Below, piece by piece: positions 3,606 through 25,867 of a stretch of 64,000 nucleotides of DNA. A program made the translations under genes and the position numbers. Each line of letters starts with the position of its first letter. Positions within the stretch are counted from its first letter, which is position 1. The notes beneath the pieces are model-generated. The model did not search any database and was not told the origin of the DNA. It worked only from the letters and a program-made list of their open reading frames with translations. Origin of the DNA: Sarea resinae. Lineage: Eukaryota. The stretch is taken from positions 186,001 through 250,000 of the forward strand of contig JAPEUD010000025.1 of assembly GCA_026026165.1 (NCBI GenBank), written 5' to 3'.

Positions 3606-4034
3606 ATGGCTGTCACCACTGAATCCAACACGCAGCGCCCAGCGCAAATACAAGAGCCAATGGCCACACACTTCTCAGAGCCCTCGACACAACCAGTCGT
3701 ATCTGAACAGCCTGTAGGTGACCCTTCGCGTGCTCTTTTCGAAAGGTGAACGGCTGACTTACTGCTCATCGGGTCTATGCAGTCGCCCTCCCTACAAAAC
3801 ATGAGCTTCGAACGTCAACAGCCAGAGACGACCCAAGCCAAGGCGGAACCCAAAGTCTCGATGCGAGGCGGGGGCGTCATTGGCGATTGGTGCGTTGTGA
3901 TCACTTCTCCGATTATCAATAAGGCGGTCTCCTAAAGCAGTCTCCTCAGACCGACTGACACGTGCCTTGTATCTAGTTTTGACGCCATCGTCTGCTTTGA
4001 ATGCTGCAAGGGATGCTGTGACTGTTGCTGCTAG
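3606..4034 (+). CDS. 90-aa Pro/Gln-rich protein with MRGGG motif and Cys-rich C-terminus (CYSTM-like)
   Basis: Exons 3606-3713, 3783-3889, 3977-4034. Introns GTAGGT..GCTGAC..CAG and GTGCGT..ACTGAC..TAG. Product MAVTTESNTQRPAQ...EPKVSMRGGGVIGDCFDAIVCFECCKGCCDCCC*. Not in the supplied ORF track. Confidence 0.8.
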
Positions 4035-4171
4035 AGTCAACACATCGTTCGTGGCAGCTATACATATCAATGCTAGACTTGAACTAAGACTTTGCTACGT
4101 GCTTCTATAGTTTAACAGACTACCTAGGTAGTAAAGGATTTCTAGTACTGCTATACTTAATAGAGAGAGTA

Positions 4172-4527
4172 CTTAGTTGCCCTAGACTATTTCTGGCACC
4201 CGTGTTGCGACCGTGTTGCGACTGTCTCAACACCTTCTAATAGGTGCAGAACATTGTTGTAGTTCTAGAGATTGTACTAGTAGAAAACCTGTATTAATAC
4301 TACTTGTGCTGTTTAGAGGCTTTTACCACCGCTCTGCTAGCACTCTATATATAGTAGTGATTAATCTCTGAATTTTAGGACTTAATAGCCTTAATACTTA
4401 TTTAGAATTATACATATTAAGTATATCTAGGCTGAAAATCTAGAATAAAGACATTAATATTCTTCTTTATTCTCTAGCTAAAGAAAGAGTAAGTTTATCA
4501 GCTAATATATATTTATATATAAGATTT
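4172..4527. mobile_element. Left arm of non-autonomous TIR element 1 (TA TSD, Tc1/mariner-pogo-like MITE, about 590 bp before Copia insertion)
   Basis: 4172-4270 (cttagttgccctagactatttctggcacccgtgttgcgaccgtg...) is the inverted copy of about 22355-22457. TA at 4170-4171. Confidence 0.8.
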
Positions 4528-5013
4528 TAGTAGAATTATAACCTTAATTCTAGTCACTCTTAAGTATCTAGACTGTTATAGAATGTTATATAACAGTATA
4601 GATATATCTAGAAGCTTCTATAAACCTATAGAAGCTAATAGAATATAGTAGAACCTTATAGAATCTTATAGAACATTCTAGAAGATTCTATAGCTATGCT
4701 GACTAAGCATCTAGAACCTTCTAGAACCCTTTAGAATGTTCTAGAACTATCTAGTAGTCTATAGAATCTCTTAGATATCTATAGAATTTCTATAACATAA
4801 GAATTATATAACTATCTCTTAACTTTCTTACAAAGCATATGTTATTATTAGCTTATTGCTTACAAATCACTTATGTAGTAAGTTAGTTAAGTCTATATAT
4901 TAATTGCCTTACACCTCTATAGCTAGAATCTTAAAGTTTATAATATACAATTATTCTATACTATACTTCTTTAGCACCTTCCTCTACTTATATCTTTGTG
5001 CTACATTCTAACA
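4528..5013 (+). repeat. Copia 5' LTR (486 bp)
   Basis: Direct repeat of 21709-22222; ends ...ttctaACA followed by the PBS-like motif. Confidence 0.93.
4571..4790. promoter_or_regulatory. Heat-shock-element-like arrays (GAAnnTTCnn decamers) in the 5' LTR; duplicated at about 21752-21975
   Basis: Twelve consecutive decamers at 4571-4690, including perfect GAAcaTTCtaGAAgaTTC (4671-4688). Second phased run from 4714 (GAAccTTCtaGAA, GAAtgTTCtaGAA). Confidence 0.7.
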
Positions 5014-5470
5014 GGTTATAAGCCTTGCTAGCCTGCTAAAGAAGCCTATCCTCCTATAATTTCGTGGCTTTTTCACTTATAGCCACTAAAATTCCTTTGA
5101 AAAGGGGTTGAACTTTCTCTTTCACCTAAAAAGACTAGGTCCTATAGTCTTTATAGTCCCTAGGCAGTTATATAGTCTCCTAGAGGCTATATAACTTAAC
5201 TTACAGATAAGAACCACTTAGAGTAGACTGCTTAAACTAAGCCTATACTTATAGACATTAGGTATACACACACTTAATAAGGATTTTACTAATCCTTTGT
5301 GCTACCTTTAGGCATAATCCCCTTTAAAGAGAAACACCTATAGGAGAGCAAGTTAAGTGCTTAATATATGCTGCCTTTACCTAGTCCTATAGTACCTATA
5401 GCTTGTGTCTATAGAACTATAGTATAGCAGCCTGTGTTCTGCATACCTTAGCAGCTTGTGTTCTGCAAAG

Positions 5471-5640
5471 CAGCCTTTGTGCTGCAATTTTACACACCTA
5501 TAGAACTGTAACAGTTTAAAAGTCACAAAACAGCCTTTGTGCTAATCTTTTATGCACCTATAGAACTTGTAACAGTAGTGCAAAAGCATAAGACACTCTT
5601 TATGCAGCTATTTCATACATCTATAGAACTTCTATAGGTG
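5471..5640 (+). repeat. About 60-bp tandem repeat (about 3 copies) in Copia 5' leader
   Basis: cagcctttgtgct...cacctatagaac(t)tgtaacagt at 5471 and 5531, with a degenerate third copy at 5591. Confidence 0.75.
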
Positions 5641-6909
5641 TACAAAAGTCATACTAGTGTGATTCTACTACTTGCAGTAGAATACACTTAATAGCTAGTA
5701 GTTCTTTTCTCTGAAATTAAGTAGGAGATTAGTAATCACAGCTATGTCTAATCCTGCATATGAAATCCCTAAGCTGCAAGGCAGCTCTAATTAGGATTTG
5801 TAGTCTATAAGGATAGAATCCCTGCTTATAGAGAAGGGCTATTTTAAAGTCATGTCTAAAGACCTTAAAATAGTATAGATATTGATTCTAACTATTATAA
5901 GGCAAAATCTGCAAAAGCGCTAGCCTATATTAGGCTTGCCCTAGCAGATAGCCTACTGTTACAGACTAGGTATTACACTAATCTATAAAAATTGTAGGCT
6001 AGTCTGTAAAATCTCTATAAATCTAAGGGATTTAATTCTAAATTCCTAATCTATAGAGAGTTGTTTAATACAGCTCTTTAAAAATACAAGGATCTAGAGG
6101 ACTATATTATAAAAATCAAGCAGCTAAATAATAAGCTAAGGGCTAGAGACTTAATTCTACCTGATAAATTCATAGCTATATAGACTCTAAACAACCTTAC
6201 TACCTAGTAAGTATAATAATATAGTTACTATTATCACACAAATAATAAACAAAAGCAAAGACAAGGATATAAATCTAGAGAAAATCTTTGTATAGCTAAT
6301 AGATAACTCTAAGAGGTTTAAAATCTCTAAGAGCACTAGTAATAGAGATAATAGTTATAACACTAGCAAGGATACAGAGGTAGCCCTTACCTCTAGAGGT
6401 AAAAAGCACTGTGATTATTATAGACTAATTAATTACAATGAGTCTACATGCTTTAAAAAGCATCCTAGCCTAAAAAGGAGCAAAAAGCCTAATGCTAAAA
6501 AGCATAGTGCTAACTCCTCTACAGCAAAGGAACTATAAGAGGAAAAGAGCTTTATAGCTACAAGCTCTAATTCCTATAGCTGTCCTAAATCAGTGTCAGA
6601 ATGCACTGTTACAAAGTTATAAAAGGGCACTATTACACCTAAAGCTTCCTATAGCTGTATAAGATTTGAGTTAAAATGCACTGTTATAGATTAGATTCTT
6701 AACTTAGGTGCAACAACATATATCTGCTATAGAAAGGAACTTTTTAACAATCTTAGACCCTATAACACTACTGTAAAGTAGAGTAACACTAGTAGTTCTA
6801 CTATAGCAACAGGTATAGAGAATATTAAGCTAATATTTACCCTAACAAATCAGATAGTAAATATTAGAGATATCCTATATATCTCTAACTTTAGTGTAAA
6901 CCTGCTATC

Positions 6910-8271
6910 TAGGCTGACTGCTCTAACTAGGTAACCTAATCTAATAACTCTTTAGATAAGGCTTATAGATTAGATTGCTCTAATTTTACAATCTATAACT
7001 TAGTTCTAATTTAGTAAAGGAAATATTAATCTAACCTAACCTAATCTAACAACCTGTCACGTGACCTAGGTACTAGTAGTATGTATAGCAGGTAATAGTT
7101 TTTAGTAACGCTTTTAATATTTAATTAGGTAGAACAGTAGAATTATATTAATTAGCAGAATAGTAGAGTAATAATATATTATAAGATAAAACATACTATA
7201 TTATAGTGATAGAAAAGATTTTATCTAATAACAATTAAACTTTAAGCTGCACTTAACCTTATAGTAGAGTATTATAGTGTCTCTATAACTAAAGATCTAA
7301 GCTTATCCTTTAAAAAACTAATATTATATAGAGAATAAGAGGAATATATTATATATTTATACTTTTTACTATATACTTTCTGTATTTATAATAATATAAA
7401 TAGCTGCTCTCTTTTACTACTATCTTCTTTTTTACTAATATAGTAGCTTTTAGCAACCTCTTTCTCTTCTACTATTATATATAATTCTTAACTCTCTACT
7501 TTAGTTAAAGGTTTAAATACACACTTATTACTCTAATAAATTATTATAAGGCTTTAAATTGTGTTAGAATTAAGCTAACTTTATTAATAATAAACAATAT
7601 TATATACAATATTAAAGTATCTTTTTACTCTAACTATAGAGATAAGAGCTACTAAGATATTATATACTATATACTCTATAGCTAGAAGCTTTAGTATTAT
7701 ATACTACTAGTACTTTAAAAATATTAGTATCTAAATAATACTATTACTAGTTGCTATTACTTACTTTTAAAGAGGTTTATAGACTTCTAAAGCAGTTAAA
7801 AAACTTAGGTATTTTATAGCTTTATTAACTCTTCTACTCTATTAAGTAGACTTTTACTAAGTTATAAGAGTAAAAGAGTTAAGAGTTAGATATATTAGTG
7901 TCTCTACTATAGATATAGTAAGTGCTTATAGTTCTTATTAGTAGTAGTAAGATTAGTAGTAATATTAGAAGAATTATTGCTAATATTTTTAAATATAAGA
8001 TATTCTTTAGTTTAGACTCTATTATTAATAGTTAGTAGACTTTTAGTATTATTACTAAAGAGTATTACTTTATGTTTTTATTTTAGATCTAAGATATATA
8101 TAAGGCTATATAGTTGCTTACTACTATTTATAGTTGCTTTATAATACTTATTTAACTAAGAGATACTAGTATTAATTATATTAGAAAAGACTTTACTTCT
8201 AAGAGATATTTTTCTTTAAAAGCTCTACCTTTTAATTCTCTAGATAATTAAAAAGCAAACTATATATATAC
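6910..8271 (-). mobile_element. hAT DNA transposon remnant A (3' part)
   Basis: Minus strand about 7545-7715 reads Y**...VYNILVALISIVRVKRYFNIVYNIVYY**S*LNSNTI, which de-RIPs to the hAT dimerisation motif (WW...ARDILAAPVS.VGVER.FNIARDI.HYRRG.L.PDTI). Terminus TAGGCTG at 6910 with ctaatcta-type subterminal repeats. Confidence 0.8.
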
Positions 8272-10189: not shown

Positions 10190-13100
10190 TCTTATATATT
10201 CCTTAATATCTTTAGCTAAGTTAGTCTACTAGTATTTATACTAGATTACCTTTGTTATTCTCTTAGCGCTAAAGTAGCTACTAAACAAGTTATTATAGTT
10301 TATCCTTATAATTTCTAACTTAATAGCTGTATTATATAGTATATAAGCCTTGCTTTCTAGGTGTAGCAAGCTAGTAGAGTTAATTTTCTACTTTTCCTAG
10401 CCTGTAACCTCCTTAGTAAGAATGCTCTTAATCTTTTCCTTAGCGAAATAATCTTTCTACTAAGTCCTAAGGATAATGTTAAGTAGCTAGCTTATTAGCA
10501 GCTTATACACTCTTTTATTAGCAGCTGCTTTATACACTACTTATTTTATATAGAGGTGTTTAAACTTATCTCCTAATACTAGCTTATTAGTATTATTATA
10601 AATAGAGTTTAGGCTAGGTGTTAAGCTAGCTTAACTATATCGCTTATTAATAGTAGGTAGAGTGTTATTCTCTAGCCTAGAGAGGTTTTTAATCCCTTAT
10701 AGATATATATTATCCTTAGGTATATTAGCGCCTATTTTACCTAGATACTTATTATTTATTCTAGTAAGAAGGTTTTAGATTACTAGTGTAGTGCTATCTC
10801 TTTTTAATATATATAGGTTCTGCAGCTTCTGCTATAGAGTAAGAAGTATTACTTCTAGACTCTATATCTTTACCTTATAATTAGAGCGCTATAACAGCCT
10901 ATTAGCTAGATTAGCTTTCCTTACTCTATATATAAGTTTAAAGTTATACACTACTAGTTGCTTAGCCTACCTAGCTTAGCAATAAGTTAACACCTTTATA
11001 GTTATAAAGTAGCATAAATTTATATAGTTAGTTAAGACCTTAATAGAGTAATTAGCCTCTTCTAAGTAGTAGCACTATTGCTTAAAAGCTATAACAATAG
11101 CTAGCAACTCTAAGTTATACACTTTATATCTTAATTTAGTTTTAGTAAGCTTTCTAGACTAGTATACAACTAGGTGCTACTATAACGCTATTAAAACACT
11201 CTCTTTATCCTTAACTAGCTGTAATAGAATTACTATAACAGTAAATCTAGAAGCGTCTGTTTCTATATATATTTACCTCTTTAAGTTATAGTAACACAGT
11301 ATTAGCACTGTTGTAAACGCCTCTTTTAAGGCTTTAAAAGCTTCTCTAGCTTTTTTTAAGAAATAGAATAGACTACTTTTCTTACTGTTCTTACTTCTAG
11401 CAAGCAGGCTAGTTAATAGCAGCGCCTTAATAGAGTATTTCTTAATAAATCTTTAGTAGAAATTTGTAAATCCTAAGAAGACCTAGAGGTTATAGTAGGT
11501 CTTAAAGGCTAGCTATTCTCTAATAGTATCTACCTAGCTCTTCTCTATTACAATTCTATTAGTCCTAATTATAAATCCTAAGAAATCAACTTTCTACACT
11601 CTAAAGACATATTTTAAAGGCTTTATATATAGGCTATAAGTTGATAGCTGTTTAAAGACCTAGTATATATACTTCTTATACTTATTAAGTGAATTAGAGT
11701 ATATAAGAATGTTATCTAGATAGATAACACAGCAAACATTAACTAGGCCTTATAGTGTATAGTTAATATAGCTCTAAAATATAGCAGGTGTATTAGCTAA
11801 TCTAAAAGGTATAACTTTATATTTAAATTAGCTATAATAAGTGCAGAATGTTGTCTTATACTTATTGCCTTTACAGATCCTTATATAGTAGTAGGTATCT
11901 CTTAGGTCTAGTTTTAAAAAAACTTTAGCATTGCTTATTTAGTCTATAAGTTTAGAAATCAAGGGTAATAGGTATTAATTCTTAATAGTGATATTGTTTA
12001 GCGCCTAGTAGTTAATGTAAAGCTATAGGCTACTATTCTTCTTAGGTATAAATAGGATTAGCATGCTAATAGAGCTAATAAAGAGAGTAATCTACCTCTT
12101 TACTAAGCTATTATTAAGGTATCCTTTTAGGACACCTAATTCCTTTTAGAATAATAGGTATATAGGTCTATATAGAGAGTCTTTACCTTCTAATTCTATA
12201 GCATAGTTAGCTAGGCTATACTTAGGAAGCTTACTAGCCTTCTCTTTACTAAACACAGAAGCAAATTCCTTATATTTCTTAGGAATCTTATTGCTAGTGC
12301 CTACCTAGTGTAGCTTTACTACCTTAATAGGTTTAGGAACAATTATAATCCCTTAACAATTTTACTAATATTTCTTCTAGTGTTCTTTACCTAGCCTAGG
12401 CTTATTTATAGGCTCTATATAGCTAAACCTTCTTTCTAACTAATATATATTGTAGTAGTATAAGGATAGCTATAGATATTTAAGTAAGAATAGAGGACTA
12501 TTAAAGTTATAAGTAAGGAACTAGCACTACACTATCTTCTTTACACTAGTACTATTAGCAACTTATATCTTTAATTAGTGTTAGCTATATATTACTACTT
12601 ATAAGCTGTTTACTATTACTACACTAGGTAGCTGCTTTAGCTCTACCTTAGAGATCCTATACTCTTTAATCTATAATTATAAAACTAGAGGAGCTTCTAC
12701 TCTTAAGTTAATTAAGGTAGTGCTATTTGTTATACTAATAGGTATATAAATAGTTAATAACGTCTCTAACCTTAAGGCCTAAATGCTCTAAGATCTACCT
12801 ACACTAAGATAGTGTATAATATAGGGCTCTAGTTCTAGTTATAAAGCTAGCGCTACACTAAAGGTCCTTTTATTCTTATAAGCTAATATAAAGTAATCTC
12901 TTTAGCTGCAATTAAGGTAAAGATTCTCTTCTTACCTTTGCTAATATTTATTAATAGAGATATAGCGCTACGTTGTTATTCTCTTAGACTACTTATTATC
13001 CTTTTACTAAACTTAGAGCTTCTTCTCTTATAAAGAGAAACCCTTTCCTTTGCGCTTAGATAGGTTAAACTTTCTCTTTATTTCTTGCCTTTTCTAAGGC

Positions 13101-17801: not shown

Positions 17802-18545
17802 CCTTTAGCAAATTCAAAGAATATATTGCTAAAGAGGAAAATCAAAGCCTAAAAAGACTAAAAAAATTTTACTTAGATAATGCTAAGGTCTATAACAACA
17901 TTATGTTTAAGGAATTTCATGCTGAAAAAGGCATTATAGACTCTTATAATGCACTCTATACCCTTAAACAAAATAGCCTAGCAGAAAAGATTAATAGGAC
18001 CTTACTTAATAAAGTTAGAGCCCTACTAAATCAGGCTAATTTCCCTAAAAAGTTCTAGAGAGAAGCTATTCTAGCTGCTATATAACTCTATAATAGGACC
18101 TTTAATAGCTCTATAGGCTACAAAACACTCTATAAGCTAAGGTTTAATAAAAAGCCTAACCTAGACTACATAAAAGTCTAGGATTCTCTAGCCTATAAGA
18201 GAGAGCCTAAGGAACTAATCAAAAAATTAGATAACAGAGCTAAGCCCTATTACCTAATCAACTATAGCTCAAATTAATACAAGCTGCTAGACCTTAAAAC
18301 AACTAAAACAATCTAGGCTAGAGATGTTAGGATTATAGAAAACACATTCTATAATTCTGCAGAAGGCTATACCCCTGACCTAGGGGCCCTAGAGGAGCTA
18401 GAGAAGGATACATCTGATCTAGAGGATAAAACTCCTATAGGTGTCAAAAATTCACCTCCTACACCTGCTGTAACAGTATAGGAAGATCTTGTAACAGTAG
18501 AAGATCAGAGTTCTATAGGTGATAACAATTCAGTCACACCTGACA

Positions 18546-19134
18546 CATCAGCAAAAAGGGAGGCGTACTACAGGCGACTACAGGTGCGCTGTGTAACCCA
18601 CGTTACCCATGTTACAAACAGTCAACGCTGTAGTCCAACATGTACAGTAGTTCTAGTGGCAGCTACAGTAGCACTACATGTAGTGCGGTGTAGCAAGCGG
18701 GGTACGTACCTAGTACGTACTACAGTAGCCGGTTTATGCTAGTAGTGCAACTTAGCGAACTTAGCACTTATAGACAGTTCTAGCATGCCTAGCCTATAGG
18801 GCTATAGGGTAGGTTATAGCCTTGGCGCTGACTAATCATAGAGTGAATTTTCATGAATTTTCATAATTTCCCATTTAGGAAGTCTTAGCGTTGATGCCTA
18901 TAGCACTAGAGCCACTTTCGCTTAAATTTCGCTTAAACCTTTGCTTATGTAAGCAATTTTCGCGTAGCATAGGCATTTCTATGTAGATAGAAGAATTCTG
19001 TGTAGATATAGGTGTTCTATGTAGACACTGCAAAACTACATAGCTACTTAATGCATTACTATTTCTATGTAGCTAGGTACTATATACATGTGTTAAGGTA
19101 CAAACTACATAGACCTTTCCCCTTTTTGCTGATG
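18546..19134. mobile_element. 589-bp non-autonomous TIR element with 2-bp (CA) TSD
   Basis: Perfect 15-bp TIR CATCAGCAAAAAGGG / CCCTTTTTGCTGATG. CA at 18544-45 and 19135-36. Retains more CpG than its flanks. Confidence 0.85.
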
Positions 19135-20136
19135 CATAATAGATACTAATAGATCTGATATAGATAAGCTAAGCAGTGAATATTATGCAAATATAGCTAG
19201 CACCTCTAAGCTAGCAACAACACTATGCAAACTTTATGCAGAATTTCATAGTTTGTAACAGTCTGTATACAAGAGGGAATCACACTGTTACAGACATCTA
19301 TAGAAGTTCTATAGATGTATCTAATCCTAAGAGCTATAGGGAAGCTCTAAAGTCACCCTAAAAAGAGGAGTGGCTAAAATCAATGCAGAAGGAGCTTACT
19401 AAGCGAAAAGAATTAGGAGTTCTAAAGCTAGTCTCTAGACCTAAAAATGCTAATATAATCAATAGCAGGTAGGTCTATAAAACAAAGCTAAACCCTAATA
19501 ATATAATTAACAAAAGGAAATCTAGGTAGGTTGCTAGAGGCTTCCTACAAAAGCAAGAGGTTGACTATACAGAGATCTTTGCTTACACTAGCAATCCTAC
19601 AGCTATAAAACTACTTCTAATTATAGCTGCTAAACTAGATCTAGAAATATATTAGTAGGATATAGCTTCTGCATTTCCTAATGCTAATCTAGATAATCCT
19701 ATCTATATAGAGCAGCTAAAGGGTTTTATAGAAGAAAAAGTCAAAGTTTATCTTCTAAACAAAGCTCTATATAGCCTAAAACAAGCTGCTAGACAGTAGG
19801 AAATTCACCTAAAGAATTAACTTATAAAAATAGGATTTAAAACAATCCTAGCAGATAGCTCTATCTATATTAAAGAGGATATAATAATTACTATATATAT
19901 AGATAACATTCTACTATTTAGCAAATCAGCTAACAGTATAAATAGTCTCTACAAAGACCTCTCTAAGCACTTAGAGATCTCTAATCTAAGGGCTATAAAA
20001 TTCTATCTAGAGATAGAAATCTTTAAAGATAGGTCTAATAGAAGGATTACTCTAAATCAGAAGGCTTTTATTACTAATTTGTTAATAAAATTCAACAAAT
20101 TAGGCCTAAAGCCTATAACAACACCTTCTATAAGTA

Positions 20137-20831: not shown

Positions 20832-21708
20832 TAGTATAAAGTTAGATAGAAACAGTCTATAAGTAAACTCTAAAGATATTAAACAATATTAAAGGGAAAT
20901 AGGTAGTCTAATCTACCTAACTGTTATTTCTAGACCTAATCTAGCCTATGCAGTAAATCTATGTGCTAGATTTATGCAAAATCCTAGCTAGCTGCATTTT
21001 AAATCCCTAGATAGGATCTAGCAATACCTTATCTATACAAAGGACTATAGTTTTATCTATTAGTCTAAATCACAATAAAAAGGCCTAAAACTCCTAGGTT
21101 ATTGCAATTCAGACTAGGAGAGAGATTATAGCAGAAAATCTATAACAGGCTATGTTTTTCTACTAGATAATAACATAGTTTCCTAGAATTCTAAACTGCA
21201 AAAAACAATTGCCTTAAGCTCTTATAAAGCAGAATATATAGCTCTAAAAGAGGCTATAAAAGAGAATATATATATAAATTCTCTAATTAAGCAAATCCCT
21301 TTGCTAAAAGACAATATTAGTATAGAGGATTCTAAGGCTATATATACTAACAGCCTTTCTACTATAGAACTAGTAAAAACTCTAATGTTTTATTAAAAAA
21401 CAAAGCATATTATTATATAATATCACTTTGTTAGAGACAACTTTTAAAGGAATATAATCCACCCAAATTATATACCTACAGCTAGTCAACTAGCAGATAG
21501 CTTTACTAAGCCACTTAGCACTTAAAAGTGGCTAGAAGTCCTAAAGGCTATTTAGATACAGCCTACACCTAAAGAACAAACTAGTTCTATAGGTACAAGT
21601 TCTATAGGTGCATAAAATTACGTACCTATAGCAACTGTTATAAAAAGCTAAGTTCTATACATGTTCTAAATTGCATACCTATCCTATAGAATTAAGCTTA
21701 AGAGAGTG

Positions 21709-22222
21709 TGTTAGAATTATGCCCTTAATTCTAGTCACTCTTAAGTATCTAGACTGTTATAGAATGTTATATAACAGTATAGATATATCTAGAAGCTTCT
21801 ATAAACCTATAGAAGCTAATAGAATATAGTAGAACCTTATAGAATCTTATAGAACATTCTAGAAGATTCTATAGCTATGCTGACTAAGCATCTAGAACCT
21901 TCTAGAACCCTCTAGAATGTTCTAGAACTGTCTAGTAGTCTATAGAATCTCCTAGATATCTATAGAATTTCTATGACATAAGAATTATATACCTAACTAT
22001 CCCTTAACTTTCTTACAAAGCATATATTGTTATTAGCTTATTGCTTACAAATCACTCATGTAATTAGTTATCACTAGAAGTTTCTAGTAAATTAGTTAAG
22101 TCTATATATCAACTGCTTTACACCTCTATAGCTAGAATCTTAAAGTTTATAATATATAATCATTCTATACTATACTTCTTTAGCACTTTCCTCTACTTAT
22201 ATCTTTGTGCTACTTTCTAACA
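21709..22222 (+). repeat. Copia 3' LTR (514 bp)
   Basis: TGTTAG...CTAACA. Differs from the 5' LTR mainly by transitions plus 24-bp and 4-bp indels. Confidence 0.95.
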
Positions 22223-22457
22223 AATATATTAGTTTTTAATGACTTTTCCTATTAAATTCTAAAGTACTATTTAATTATATACTCTAGAAAGGTGCAAATA
22301 TTATGCAACTATATGCAAATTAAGACAGTGTTAAGATAGTTCTAATACAGTTGCAACTTCTAGAACTATAATGAATTTTCTGCACCTATAGAAAGGTATT
22401 AAGACAGTTATAACACAGTCTTAATACAGGTGCTAGAAATAGCATAAGGCACTTAGC
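22223..22457. mobile_element. Right arm of TIR element 1
   Basis: Reverse complement gctaagtgccttatgctatttctagcacctgtattaagactgtg... matches the left TIR, mostly through transitions. TA at 22458-22459. Confidence 0.8.
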
Positions 22458-22992
22458 TACTATTATAGACTTATAGCTATACTTGATTAGGTTGTAATAC
22501 CTAAGATTATGTTTAGATTTTTAGTAGGTTATAGCAATAATTATCCCTAGACTTAAAAACTCTAATAGGTGCTATTACTTTAAAAGAATACACCTTTTTC
22601 TTAACTATATAGAGGTGTGTGAAATATAACCTAAAACAGGTGTTAAGGCCCCTAGAGGCTAGAGGCACTAAAATATCTCTCTGTTACTAGTAGTCTATTA
22701 ATCTTTCTCCTTCCTACCTTTCTGTACCTAAAGCTACCTTTTTCTCTACTAAGGTTTTTTTGTGACTGTAATAAGCCTCTAAAAGTTAGGTAGCTTTAGA
22801 GTAATTTTATTTCATATAACAACACGAAGAGCGCGACATTCCAATCACAAAGAGCGACTATCCACCTAGCAGGATGGTTGTGCTAACTAGGACTATAAAT
22901 GAACGCATCTAACCGCTCCGGAACTCAAGGGCACTATCAGAAAACAACCGAAAGCGGCCAAACTATCGCTGCTTTCCCAATCGCTATCATAA

Positions 22993-25867
22993 TCAGTTCT
23001 GTGGTTCCACTTTGGCCTGTCCGTTCATCGCAGAAGGTCCACTACTGCCACCATGAGGACTTGAGTTCCTTTCGGGCACCAACTGCCCCGGGGCTGTGCG
23101 CTTTTCGTCCTCGGCATCATCGTCATAATCTTCGTCTACGTCCATCTTTCGCGCGGCAGGTTCGTGTAGCTCTCTCCTATCGTCCCTCGGAGCTTCAGCC
23201 ATAGGTGGAAGATGCTGCTGATGTTGTATCGGTGGCAGCGAAGGGGGATGATGAGCAGCTTCTGATGGATGGTAATTTTCGTTGGCGCGACGCTGGTCTT
23301 CAGCGCGACGCGCCGCCGAAGAACTCCGCCGCTGACGATCACGTGGTGATGACATTCGATCAGGTGGCGATGCTCGGTGATGCTGATGGTCTTCGAGTCT
23401 CGCTCGATTCTCCTCATTTGCAGGCTTCTTCGTTGATACATTATCATCTTCCCATTCTCGCATTCGTTTGGGGGCAGCAGATGACGGTCTCTCTTCCCTC
23501 TCGCGTGCGGCTGCATCAGCAGCAGCAATGGCAGCCACTGGAGGCGGGGCGCCACTAGCGATGCCCCCAGGGTGCGAAGAATTGGGGTGATGTTGATATT
23601 GCTGGTGAGCGTATCCGGCACCCGGCGACGGAACCCTGTTATCAATGATAGGTCTCACCTCAGGTGGAGGGCTATTGCCGCGTCCAAATGGTGGCATGGG
23701 GCCAGATCCAGGCATGACATTTGCGCCATTGACAGGAGGCGGTGGTGGTGGTGGGATGCTGGCACTCCCTGCGCCATAATTCGGATTTGTGATACGATTC
23801 TGGGGCGGAGGCGGAGGCTGTGGCTGAGATTGGGGTGGTGGTGGCGGTGGAAGACTCTGCGGCCCCATGTAAGGATTTGTAGAATGATTCAATTTTGGTG
23901 ATGGTGAATGTGCTCTACGTACTGGGGTATGACGGTGCTGCTCTTGGTACTGTCTCATCTGTTCCGATCGTGGGCTCGGCTGACGAGGTAGTGGTGGAGG
24001 GGGCCTGATGCCATCACGCTGATCGTACGGATTGAGCGGCTGCGGCTGGGGATTTTGTATTTCTGCGAGACGTCTACCCCAGTCGCCGCCTGAACCTAAC
24101 GCTGCAGGCGGGGGCCCTTGCGGAGCGGCCGCTGGGCCTTGTGCACCCCACTGGGGTCCCGGAGGCCCGGCAACGCCAGCAGCCTGGTAAAGTTGCGGAT
24201 GCACATCTTGTGGAAGAGGTGCGCTATTTTGATTAGGCATGCCCGTAGATTGACCATTGCGAAGAAGCTGTAGTCGGGCTTTGATATGAACGTTGGCCGG
24301 GTCAAGGTCAGCGGCACGCTGATATGCATCCAGAGCGTCATTGGTCTGATTGTTACAAGACTCGTACTTTGGAAATGGTAAGTCATTGTCTGGCTAGCAG
24401 ACCTGAGATTTACTTACTAGAGTGCCAAGGTCATACCAGACTTCCGAAATATAAGGGTTTAGACGGATGGCGCGGGAGTATGCATCAAGAGCATCACGGT
24501 ATTGATTAATTTGGTAGTAAAGCACACCAATGGAGCACCAAAAGGTGGGATTACGTCCATCACGGTACACCGCTTGCTGATAGGCCTCATACGCTTTGGG
24601 ATACTTCTGCTGCGACATGTAGCAGCGCCCCAGCAGATACCAGCTTTGTGCATCAGTGTTGTCTGTGAGGTATGAATTAGTAGGCGATTTGCTTGATGGA
24701 TTTTGTTTAGCGCTTTAGACCGACCTGAGCTCACAGACTTTTCCAGATATTCAATCGCTTGTTCCTGACTGCTGAAACTGTTACTTTGCTGGTGATGCAG
24801 CCAGCCAAGTTGTTGAAGCACTTTAGCATGGGTGGGATCTCGTTCAAGCACCCTTCGATATGCGGCTTTTGCGGAGTCGTACTGATGATCTGATTAGAGC
24901 GAGTACGAATAAAAGCAGGAGTTTGGGTTCGTACATCTCTTTGTTGCTCGTGGACATGGCCAATCTGGAACCAGATATCCTCCTCGGTCAAGGGACGTGG
25001 GGGATCGGTCACGATGTATTTGAAGCACTAGAACATGTCATCAGCATCAACTCATTTGCCATATCTGTTGAAACTCCGTACCTCTAAGCTTTGATTAAAT
25101 TTCTGTTGCTGTTTGTAAATTATCCCCAAACGGAAATATATCTCGTTTGCCTTTTCGAAGTCAGGCTGCATACGCATGACCTGCGAGAATGCTTCTTCGG
25201 CATGTTCAAGAGAGCCGTAACGGTCATAAAGAATGCCGATTCCGTACCACAATTTCGGTTCCTAATAAAGGCACTGGTTAGAATAGAATGAGATATCAAC
25301 AGGGTGAGCCTACCTTTGGGTCTCTCAAATGGTACAGTGCTTGCTGGTAAGCGGAATAGGCTTGCTGGAGGTCGTCCATCATAAGATAACAATGCCCTGA
25401 ATTTCGTATCAGCTCGGTAAAGGCACTTGGCGACCCGACTGCGACTACACTTACCAAGACTGCCCCAGACTTCGCCATTGTTTCCTTCCAATTTGAGAAT
25501 ATTTTGTAGGAACTCGACAGCTTTTGGGAAGTGCTCCTTGGTCCGCAGTATACATGAAATGGCATTCATAGCCGGGATGGACCACTGATTGTGTCGCAAT
25601 GCTTGCTCATAAGCGTACATTGCGCCGTCGAGGTCGCCCATCAATTCGGTAAGACTGCCTGAAAGAATTGTGAGCTACTATTATTGTAGTCTAATTTGCC
25701 AACGACTAACCGATTTGAAGCCACACTGCTTCGTTGATTGAGGCCAGATGAGAGCCCGGAGGTTTGGACTGAAGGGGCAGATGCCCATTGGCTTGGGGAT
25801 GGCTTCCAGGCGGTCCATGGTGAGGACGTATTCCTCCCGTTGGCGACGGTTGCGGGTGGCTTGCCAT
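22993..25867 (-). CDS. SSN6: TPR general transcriptional corepressor Ssn6/Cyc8
   Basis: TPR segments DLQQAYSAYQQALYHLRDPK, WYGIGILYDRYGSLEHAEEAF and AYEAYQQAVYRDGRNPTFWCSIGVLYYQINQYRDALDAY; Pro/Gln/His-rich C-terminus; multiple GT-AG introns. Start inferred at MASHPQPSP. Confidence 0.95.

Follow-up and report, generated by a model that had tools for sequence, protein, structure and literature searches.

The window, by which we mean the whole 64-kb stretch of DNA that was analysed, carries a degraded LTR retrotransposon between genes of fungal appearance, namely KRE6/SKN1, Sec6, a Peptidase_C78 gene and a TPR gene. An RRP12 homologue is also present in the window and shows at most 80% identity among the 120 protein matches listed. 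Of these matches one carries an organism name, that of a lichen-forming fungus, which is no more than a hint that the host is Lecanoromycete-like. A preliminary description of this DNA had named a CYSTM-like gene and SSN6 as neighbours of the element. A short open reading frame with a Cys-rich C-terminal tail (3936–4034, + strand) ends 0.5 kb from the 5′ LTR, and the TPR gene, which resembles SSN6, ends at position 22993, 0.77 kb from the 3′ LTR. The label CYSTM itself found no counterpart in Pfam, where the Cys-rich frame had no match at E 0.01. Heat-shock or chaperone genes, which could have served as a native reference site, were not found in the 64-kb window. The AT-rich DNA on either side of the element (4100–4530 and 22223–22990) also has a RIP signature, and a 93-bp inverted match of 77% is shared between the two sides (4178–4269 and 22359–22451). 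Together, the inverted match and the RIP-type flanks suggest that the retrotransposon sits within an older repeat.

The element is a RIP-degraded Ty1/Copia LTR retrotransposon. Its 5′ LTR (4528–5013, + strand) and 3′ LTR (21709–22222, + strand) were delimited with blastn and MAFFT against each other and by the LTR starts of relatives; contigs of a public sequencing run (X1, see below) align with 4531–5013. When 4531–5013 was used in blastn the second copy was found at 21712–22222, and the LTR start was then moved three bases earlier, to TGT, on the basis of the relatives. Other copies can be aligned with the 5′ LTR from 4531 onwards; the three letters at its start are unlike the TGT of the 3′ LTR and of the relatives. 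A purine-rich tract before the 3′ LTR matches the PPT of relatives. Directly after the 5′ LTR lies a primer-binding-site-like stretch (5014–5027, + strand), which is a transition-mutated version of the stretch that follows the LTR of a related element, L008, and which would pair with the anticodon arm of the initiator tRNA-Met. No tRNA genes were found in the 64-kb window.

Pfam matches on the + strand were obtained for Retrotran_gag_2, the Copia-type gag (5887–6201, E 2.9e-08, translated through stops), for Pol_BBD, the Pol beta-barrel domain (6695–6919, E 4.4e-09), for the integrase C-terminal SH3-like domain (18143–18352, E 1.8e-14) and for RVT_2, the Copia-type reverse transcriptase (RT; 19422–20132, E 5.8e-46). 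This order, with the integrase upstream of the RT, is the gene order of Copia. The integrase core (rve) gave no Pfam match, and that part was read by eye in the translation. The RNase H region (20893–21552, + strand) was recognised by tblastn to relatives, at 41–57% identity. On the opposite strand, an RT and RNase H of Gypsy type (10964–12049, − strand; RVT_1 E 2.1e-16, RT_RNaseH_2 E 1.1e-17) belong to a nested element, which is heavily RIP-mutated, lies within about 7.2–17.4 kb in opposite orientation to the Copia and accounts for the 17 kb between the Copia LTRs. Compared as a possible 5-bp target-site duplication, the flanks of the Copia element, GATTT and AATAT, are alike at three of five positions, or at four of five when a single G-to-A transition is counted as a match.

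The two LTRs are about 91% alike and differ by 18 substitutions, 16 of which are transitions, and by indels of 4 bp and 24 bp. Only three of the 18 substitutions fall inside the decamer array described below. The pair is identical over 4542–4730, and 16 substitution sites and the two indels are located in the remaining 283 bp (to 5013).

DNA affected by RIP has a TpA/ApT ratio above about 0.89 and a (CpA+TpG)/(ApC+GpT) ratio below about 1.03. The values were 1.50 and 0.58 for the 5′ LTR and 1.76 and 0.52 for the Copia interior, and both are RIP-affected repeats by these measures. Over the LTRs and the interior together the ratios ranged from 1.45 to 1.76 and from 0.50 to 0.77, which is typical for RIP, and the flanking genes gave normal values of 0.72–0.73 and 1.22–1.26. 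Considering the many stops, the nested Gypsy and the RIP signature we concluded that this copy is dead, and that its present activity could at most consist in the binding of a factor. If it were still bound, the Cys-rich frame ending at 4034 or the TPR gene ending at 22993 might be affected. In fungi, however, AT-rich DNA of the RIP type is as a rule heterochromatic, which speaks against present-day activity of this copy.

Within the 5′ LTR, printing the sequence in register revealed 20 decamers at 4570–4792 in two strictly 10-bp-phased runs, in agreement with the roughly 20 phased decamers that had been described before. The first run (4570–4689, + strand) comprises 12 decamers in 10-bp phase with the unit consensus AGAAnnTT(C/A)T, and TAGAA stands at phase 0 in eight of them. 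After a spacer of 23 bp (4690–4712, no strand assigned), which forms a near-palindrome around the AP-1/Yap-like word TGACTAA, the second run (4713–4792, + strand) continues with eight decamers, shifted in phase by +3 bp, of which six contain TAGAA. Tandem Repeats Finder reported a period of 10 with 13.7 copies at 4607–4746, together with period-20 and period-30 rows. Over both runs GAA occupies unit positions 2–4 in 14 of the 20 units, and in five of the 20 it is accompanied by TTC at positions 7–9.

We defined a perfect array as at least three contiguous alternating nGAAn/nTTCn units. In the 5′ LTR the motif scan located three such heat-shock elements (HSEs), none with an assigned strand: one of four units (nGAAnnTTCnnGAAnnTTCn, 4670–4689), which is unaltered when the family majority letters are used, and two of three units each (4713–4727 and 4733–4747). 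Their counterparts in the 3′ LTR are at 21851–21870, 21894–21908 and 21914–21928. The canonical HSE, at least three contiguous inverted nGAAn units, is thereby present three times per LTR, once with four units, and the earlier observation that perfect inverted arrays of three to four units recur in the 3′ LTR was correct. In total each LTR holds three trimers or longer, eight GAAnnTTC dyads and six triple steps. The additional 24 bp of the 3′ LTR, which had also been pointed out, are real and contribute one further GAAnnTTC dyad. The 3′ LTR and most other copies of the family have C at position 4731; with this letter the element at 4733–4747 fuses with the preceding one into a run of seven units, one of them mismatched (CTC).

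Within the LTR the array spans positions 43–265. A TATA-like box (4894–4900, + strand) is found some 100 bp further downstream, at LTR position 364, and relatives have a TATA box at the matching place. Because the array is upstream of the TATA-like box and a primer-binding-like stretch follows directly after the LTR, we placed it in U3.

The array is far above chance level. The array and each LTR were shuffled 2000 times with dinucleotides preserved, the kind of control that had been proposed; three perfect arrays were never obtained, and the shuffle means were 0.001–0.003. The count of GAA and TTC in 220 bp was 20, compared with 7.1 ± 2.1 in the shuffles. The whole 64-kb window contains eight perfect arrays, six of them within the two LTRs, and a single one was found in the 16.7 kb of RIP-type, equally AT-rich DNA between the LTRs. 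This corresponds to a density of approx. 6 per kb in the LTR versus 0.06 per kb in the RIP-type interior of the element. In the Copia interior a perfect 4-unit GAA/TTC run was seen at 18844–18863, where a 10-bp unit is tandemly duplicated; the segment around it (18.0–19.0 kb) has a GC content of 0.36–0.43 and is less AT-rich than the rest of the element.

The units arose as tandem copies, so that the arrays do not count as independent events, and much of their number is explained by one founding unit. The array could be a neutral U3 minisatellite, a 10-bp unit that grew by slippage without any regulatory role. U3 often contains tandem repeats, and the unit number varies within this group of elements, as seen from a 10-bp deletion at 4639 in one contig of run X2 and from the one to five modules in the relatives of the L008 family. 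The conservation, however, was specific to the position in the unit. The positions A-G-A-A carry 2.0, 1.53, 1.71 and 1.25 bits, the next two positions only 0.07 and 0.10 bits, the following T-T-(C/A) 0.58, 1.08 and 0.32 bits and the final T 1.71 bits. The two free positions coincide with the nn of nGAAnnTTCn, as expected for a binding site under constraint and not for evenly decaying neutral tandem copies. We regard a neutral minisatellite as improbable.

Further copies of the family were sampled from Logan contigs of public sequencing runs. In run X1, apparently from the same organism, 74% of the sampled words of 4200–5400 were present, and 1296 contig pieces were placed at 80% likeness. The summed word depth in X1 was 42,000–221,000 for the LTR, 8,000–49,000 for the leader and 344–934 for the left flank, and the depth of the LTR was 100–600 times that of its flanks. 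This fits a family of hundreds of copies, many of them solo LTRs, with the reservation that contig depth is not a copy number. Run X3 gave one placed contig piece, which covered the leader only, and no contig piece of run X4 was placed on 4200–5400. An exact 21-base word from the array had no match in metagenome contigs. In one X2 contig the LTR end was joined to an LTR start via 28 letters resembling the stretch before the 3′ LTR, and a joint in X1 (5013/4531) had a single letter between LTR end and start. Joints of this kind represent family members in tandem LTR or LTR-PPT-LTR form.

The variants listed for X1 were mostly transitions. At five positions (4579, 4605, 4621, 4731 and 4749) most of the X1 depth has C or G and the window T or A, so that this copy has undergone changes of RIP type there; at 4755 an A in the majority of copies restores a GAA. 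Together with the RIP signature of the LTR (TpA/ApT 1.5), these five positions are what would be expected if the array were a by-product of RIP, that is if C-to-T change of an unrelated repeat had given TA-rich words resembling GAA and TTC. We consider this explanation largely refuted and its probability very small. RIP is unable to create G or C, hence GAA must already have had its G and TTC its C, and the long interior, equally of RIP type, has a single array. When 13 majority letters of X1 were applied by coordinate all three perfect arrays were kept, the number of in-phase GAA rose from 14 to 15 of 20 and that of triple steps from six to eight; the alternation of GAA and TTC thus persisted in the de-RIPped view that the preliminary description had called for, to the extent that X1 permits such a view. 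Among the X1 variants listed, with 41 weaker ones set aside, none lay inside the three perfect arrays and none introduced C or G at the TCTAGA cores. Additionally, the L008 family lacks a RIP signature (TpA/ApT 0.82 for the coding part, 1.09 for the LTR) and carries identical TTCTAGAA cores. We concluded that TTCTAGAA is native to the lineage and not a RIP product. The earlier proposal that RIP had turned TTCCAGAA into TTCTAGAA is unnecessary and finds no support in this relative or in the listed X1 variants at the TCTAGA cores.

The RT of the window has few long homologues, the closest with 53% identity. An alignment of five RT homologues was used to fetch 80 Copia loci from metagenome contigs, and a tree of RT and RNase H was made with 19 rows, from which L035, L016 and L069 were omitted as too short. 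The window falls in a clade of 14 rows with support 98/98, composed of (L018, L014), of (L008, L011, L010, L015, L021) and of the window with (L006, L007, L004, L003, L009, L002). Due to RIP the branch of the window is long (0.71), and its exact place within the clade is therefore unsure.

Perfect arrays of at least three units were counted in 15 clade loci, which are the 13 other tree rows of the clade and, assigned by identity, L035 and L016. In 87,472 bp these loci contain 37 arrays, spread over eight of the 15, and the 65 other Copia loci contain two in 305,891 bp. Four of the seven array-free clade loci (L003, L009, L016 and L035) end at or right after pol, without an LTR; the other three, L006, L007 and L004, form a subclade next to the window in the tree and have no perfect array. 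Mapped on the tree the presence of arrays requires three changes, and the trait would either be ancestral and lost once, or have been gained several times, for which Copia elements of Brassicaceae are a precedent (PMC5059998, excerpt).

L014 and L018 have the purine tract (PPT) and the TGTTAGAA LTR start in common with the window. Each has two 10-bp-phased runs of TTCTA in U3, at positions 21/31/41 and 113–153 in L018 and at 19–49 and 122–162 in L014, with a TATA box downstream, and their LTRs align to the window LTR only within the array. In the L008 family all eight LTR copies carry one to five perfect arrays of three to four units upstream of a TATA box. Here U3 is built from one to five tandem copies of a module of approx. 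64 bp, each with one perfect 3–4 unit HSE and a long palindrome (module-bearing LTRs in L011 at 787–1385, in L010 at 6807–7335, in L015 at 11134–11640 and in L008 at 4238–4625), which looks like amplification of an enhancer by tandem duplication. In L010, L015 and L021 the LTR begins more than 600 bp downstream of RNase H, and no long host ORF was found in the flanks of L010 and L015. L002 has a perfect 5-unit HSE at 344–368 in the leader, approx. 100 bp downstream of its 5′ LTR, and no run of at least three units in the LTR itself. The nearest relatives thus keep TTCTAGAA-type arrays in U3 regions that are otherwise unalignable, which gives comparative support for reading the array as HSEs. 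This recurrence in differing architectures, decamers, 64-bp modules and the 5-unit leader run of L002, together with the near absence of the motif from the 65 other Copia loci, is a further argument against a neutral minisatellite.

The reading that we favour, and hold to be somewhat better than an even chance, is that the array is an HSF-type stress enhancer in U3, a fungal analogue of the plant element ONSEN, from which factor binding and heat induction are predicted. Trimers of an HSF-type factor would bind the approx. 20 decamers, which are spaced one helical turn apart and have (T)AGAA or TTCTAGAA as their core. The array would offer them three HSEs of three to four units and long step-type runs, in which GAA recurs every 10 bp on the same side of the helix. 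The binding protein would most obviously be Hsf1, and Skn7 and Sfl1-like proteins with the same DNA-binding fold are further candidates. When bound, the array would drive transcription from the TATA box approx. 100 bp downstream, under heat or other proteotoxic stress, and the family may in this way have exploited the stress response of the host for its own expression, as ONSEN did in plants. From the motif we infer the type of factor and a transcription induced by heat. The preliminary description had spoken of a fungal heat- or stress-inducible Copia; the Copia domains, the fungal-looking flanks, the location of the array in U3 and the comparative support for HSEs are in favour of this, and the induction by heat stands as a prediction.

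Some observations count against an HSF enhancer. The inverted TTC partner is present in only five of the 20 units and the array consists mostly of direct TAGAA repeats. In DNA this rich in AT, GAA and TTC have a higher base rate. In addition, L006, L007 and L004 are array-free and L002 has its array only downstream of the 5′ LTR. The first of these points would also suit a real U3 enhancer that is read by another factor, one recognising TAGAA/TCTAGA half-sites once per helical turn, so that the likeness to HSEs is a by-product of the palindrome TTCTAGAA. (T)AGAA is found in 14 of the 20 units, the T before AGAA is retained in 19 of 20, which goes beyond the requirement of nGAAn, and classical heat-shock promoters do not usually show strict direct phasing at 10 bp. 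We know of no other fungal factor with a TAGAA/TCTAGA site. Against another factor speaks that the conserved unit of the L008 family is a perfect 4-unit inverted array and not a direct TAGAA repeat, and that 10-bp direct repeats are a described type of Hsf1 site, the step type (excerpts of PMC4894976 and PMC9942834). We rate this possibility as unlikely, although less so than a neutral minisatellite.

The preferred reading, an HSF-type enhancer, can be compared with Hsf1 sites known from other fungi. In Candida albicans, Hsf1 ChIP-seq peaks contain TTCnnGAAnnTTC, GAAnnTTC and TTCn7TTC configurations, and perfect, dyad and step configurations of nGAAn all occur in the present array, which differs from the host-gene sites of C. 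albicans in being much denser and in residing on a mobile element (PMC4894976, excerpt). Step-type sites predominate in Cryptococcus (PMC9942834, excerpt).

HSE-bearing LTR elements are already known in plants, flies and flatworms. In ONSEN (COPIA78), HSFA2 binds a cluster of nTTCnnGAAn in the LTR and leads to heat activation (PMC3907296, excerpt). The present element resembles ONSEN in being a Ty1/Copia element with a cluster of nGAAn units in the LTR upstream of the promoter. It differs in the kingdom of its host, and the kinship of the two is probably only at the level of the superfamily. Another contrast lies in the number of units, approx. 20 phased ones in the present LTR and up to five arrays of three to four units in the relatives. 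In ONSEN the site expanded when a proto-site was duplicated, and different Copia families of Brassicaceae have acquired such sites repeatedly (PMC5059998, excerpt); the variable tandem modules of the present clade parallel this proto-site duplication. Outside plants, HSEs are necessary for heat induction of Ty3 families in the flatworm Macrostomum lignano (PMC12801592, excerpt), and Helitrons of Caenorhabditis carry HSEs (PMC6927752, excerpt). Those are other classes of elements in other hosts, in which function was demonstrated, while our evidence comes from the DNA itself.

In fungi, putative Hsf1 sites were described upstream of gag-pol in the Cryptococcus LTRs Tcn12 and TCN3, with a proposed link to mobilisation at 37 degrees (excerpts of PMC9942834 and PMC12810828). 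Like the present element these are fungal LTR retrotransposons with putative heat-shock elements. Tcn12 has one imperfect step-type site and TCN3 two putative sites and both are basidiomycete elements, whereas the window holds a Copia of ascomycete type, with perfect multi-unit arrays that recur across its clade. The putative Tcn12 and TCN3 sites were the only HSEs in fungal LTRs that our literature searches found. According to a paper of 2026 (PMC12810828, excerpt), the activation of TEs by heat shock via the machinery of the host “remains undescribed in fungi”, and a Magnaporthe paper on TEs and stress has no passage on heat-shock elements (PMC3978060). The window and its relatives are a much clearer fungal candidate, with perfect multi-unit sites that are tandem-amplified, kept across diverged LTRs and present in very high copy number. 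If functional, such an enhancer would connect stress from the environment with the expansion of genomes and with RIP-driven decay, in fungi exposed to extreme temperature and drying, and it would offer compact stress-inducible promoters for testing.

More tentatively, and with rather less than even confidence, we propose that modular multi-copy Hsf1 enhancers in U3 may be a trait of the whole clade, to which a family of probably hundreds of copies in a lichen-type ascomycete belongs; this would then be the first fungal counterpart of ONSEN. The candidate enhancer would take several forms in this clade, decamer arrays, 64-bp modules in one to five copies and a 5-unit site in the leader. If this is true, heat or cycles of drying and rewetting would set off bursts of transposition, and stress-responsive enhancers could be carried to many places in the genome by the scattered LTRs.

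AP-1/Yap-like sites (TGACTAA, TTACTAA) were considered as additional evidence and dropped, as they occur at 2.3 per kb in RIP-type DNA, not above chance. Words resembling TTACTAA were seen near the first array in L014, L015 and L021, and in X2 contigs with loose ends at 4695–4711 the AP-1/Yap-like spacer palindrome is apparently present twice. Further tandem repeats were reported by Tandem Repeats Finder in the untranslated leader, at 5450–5487 and about 5380–5700, including a 19-bp unit, and peptide-like words recurred when the leader (about 5380–5700) was translated with read-through.
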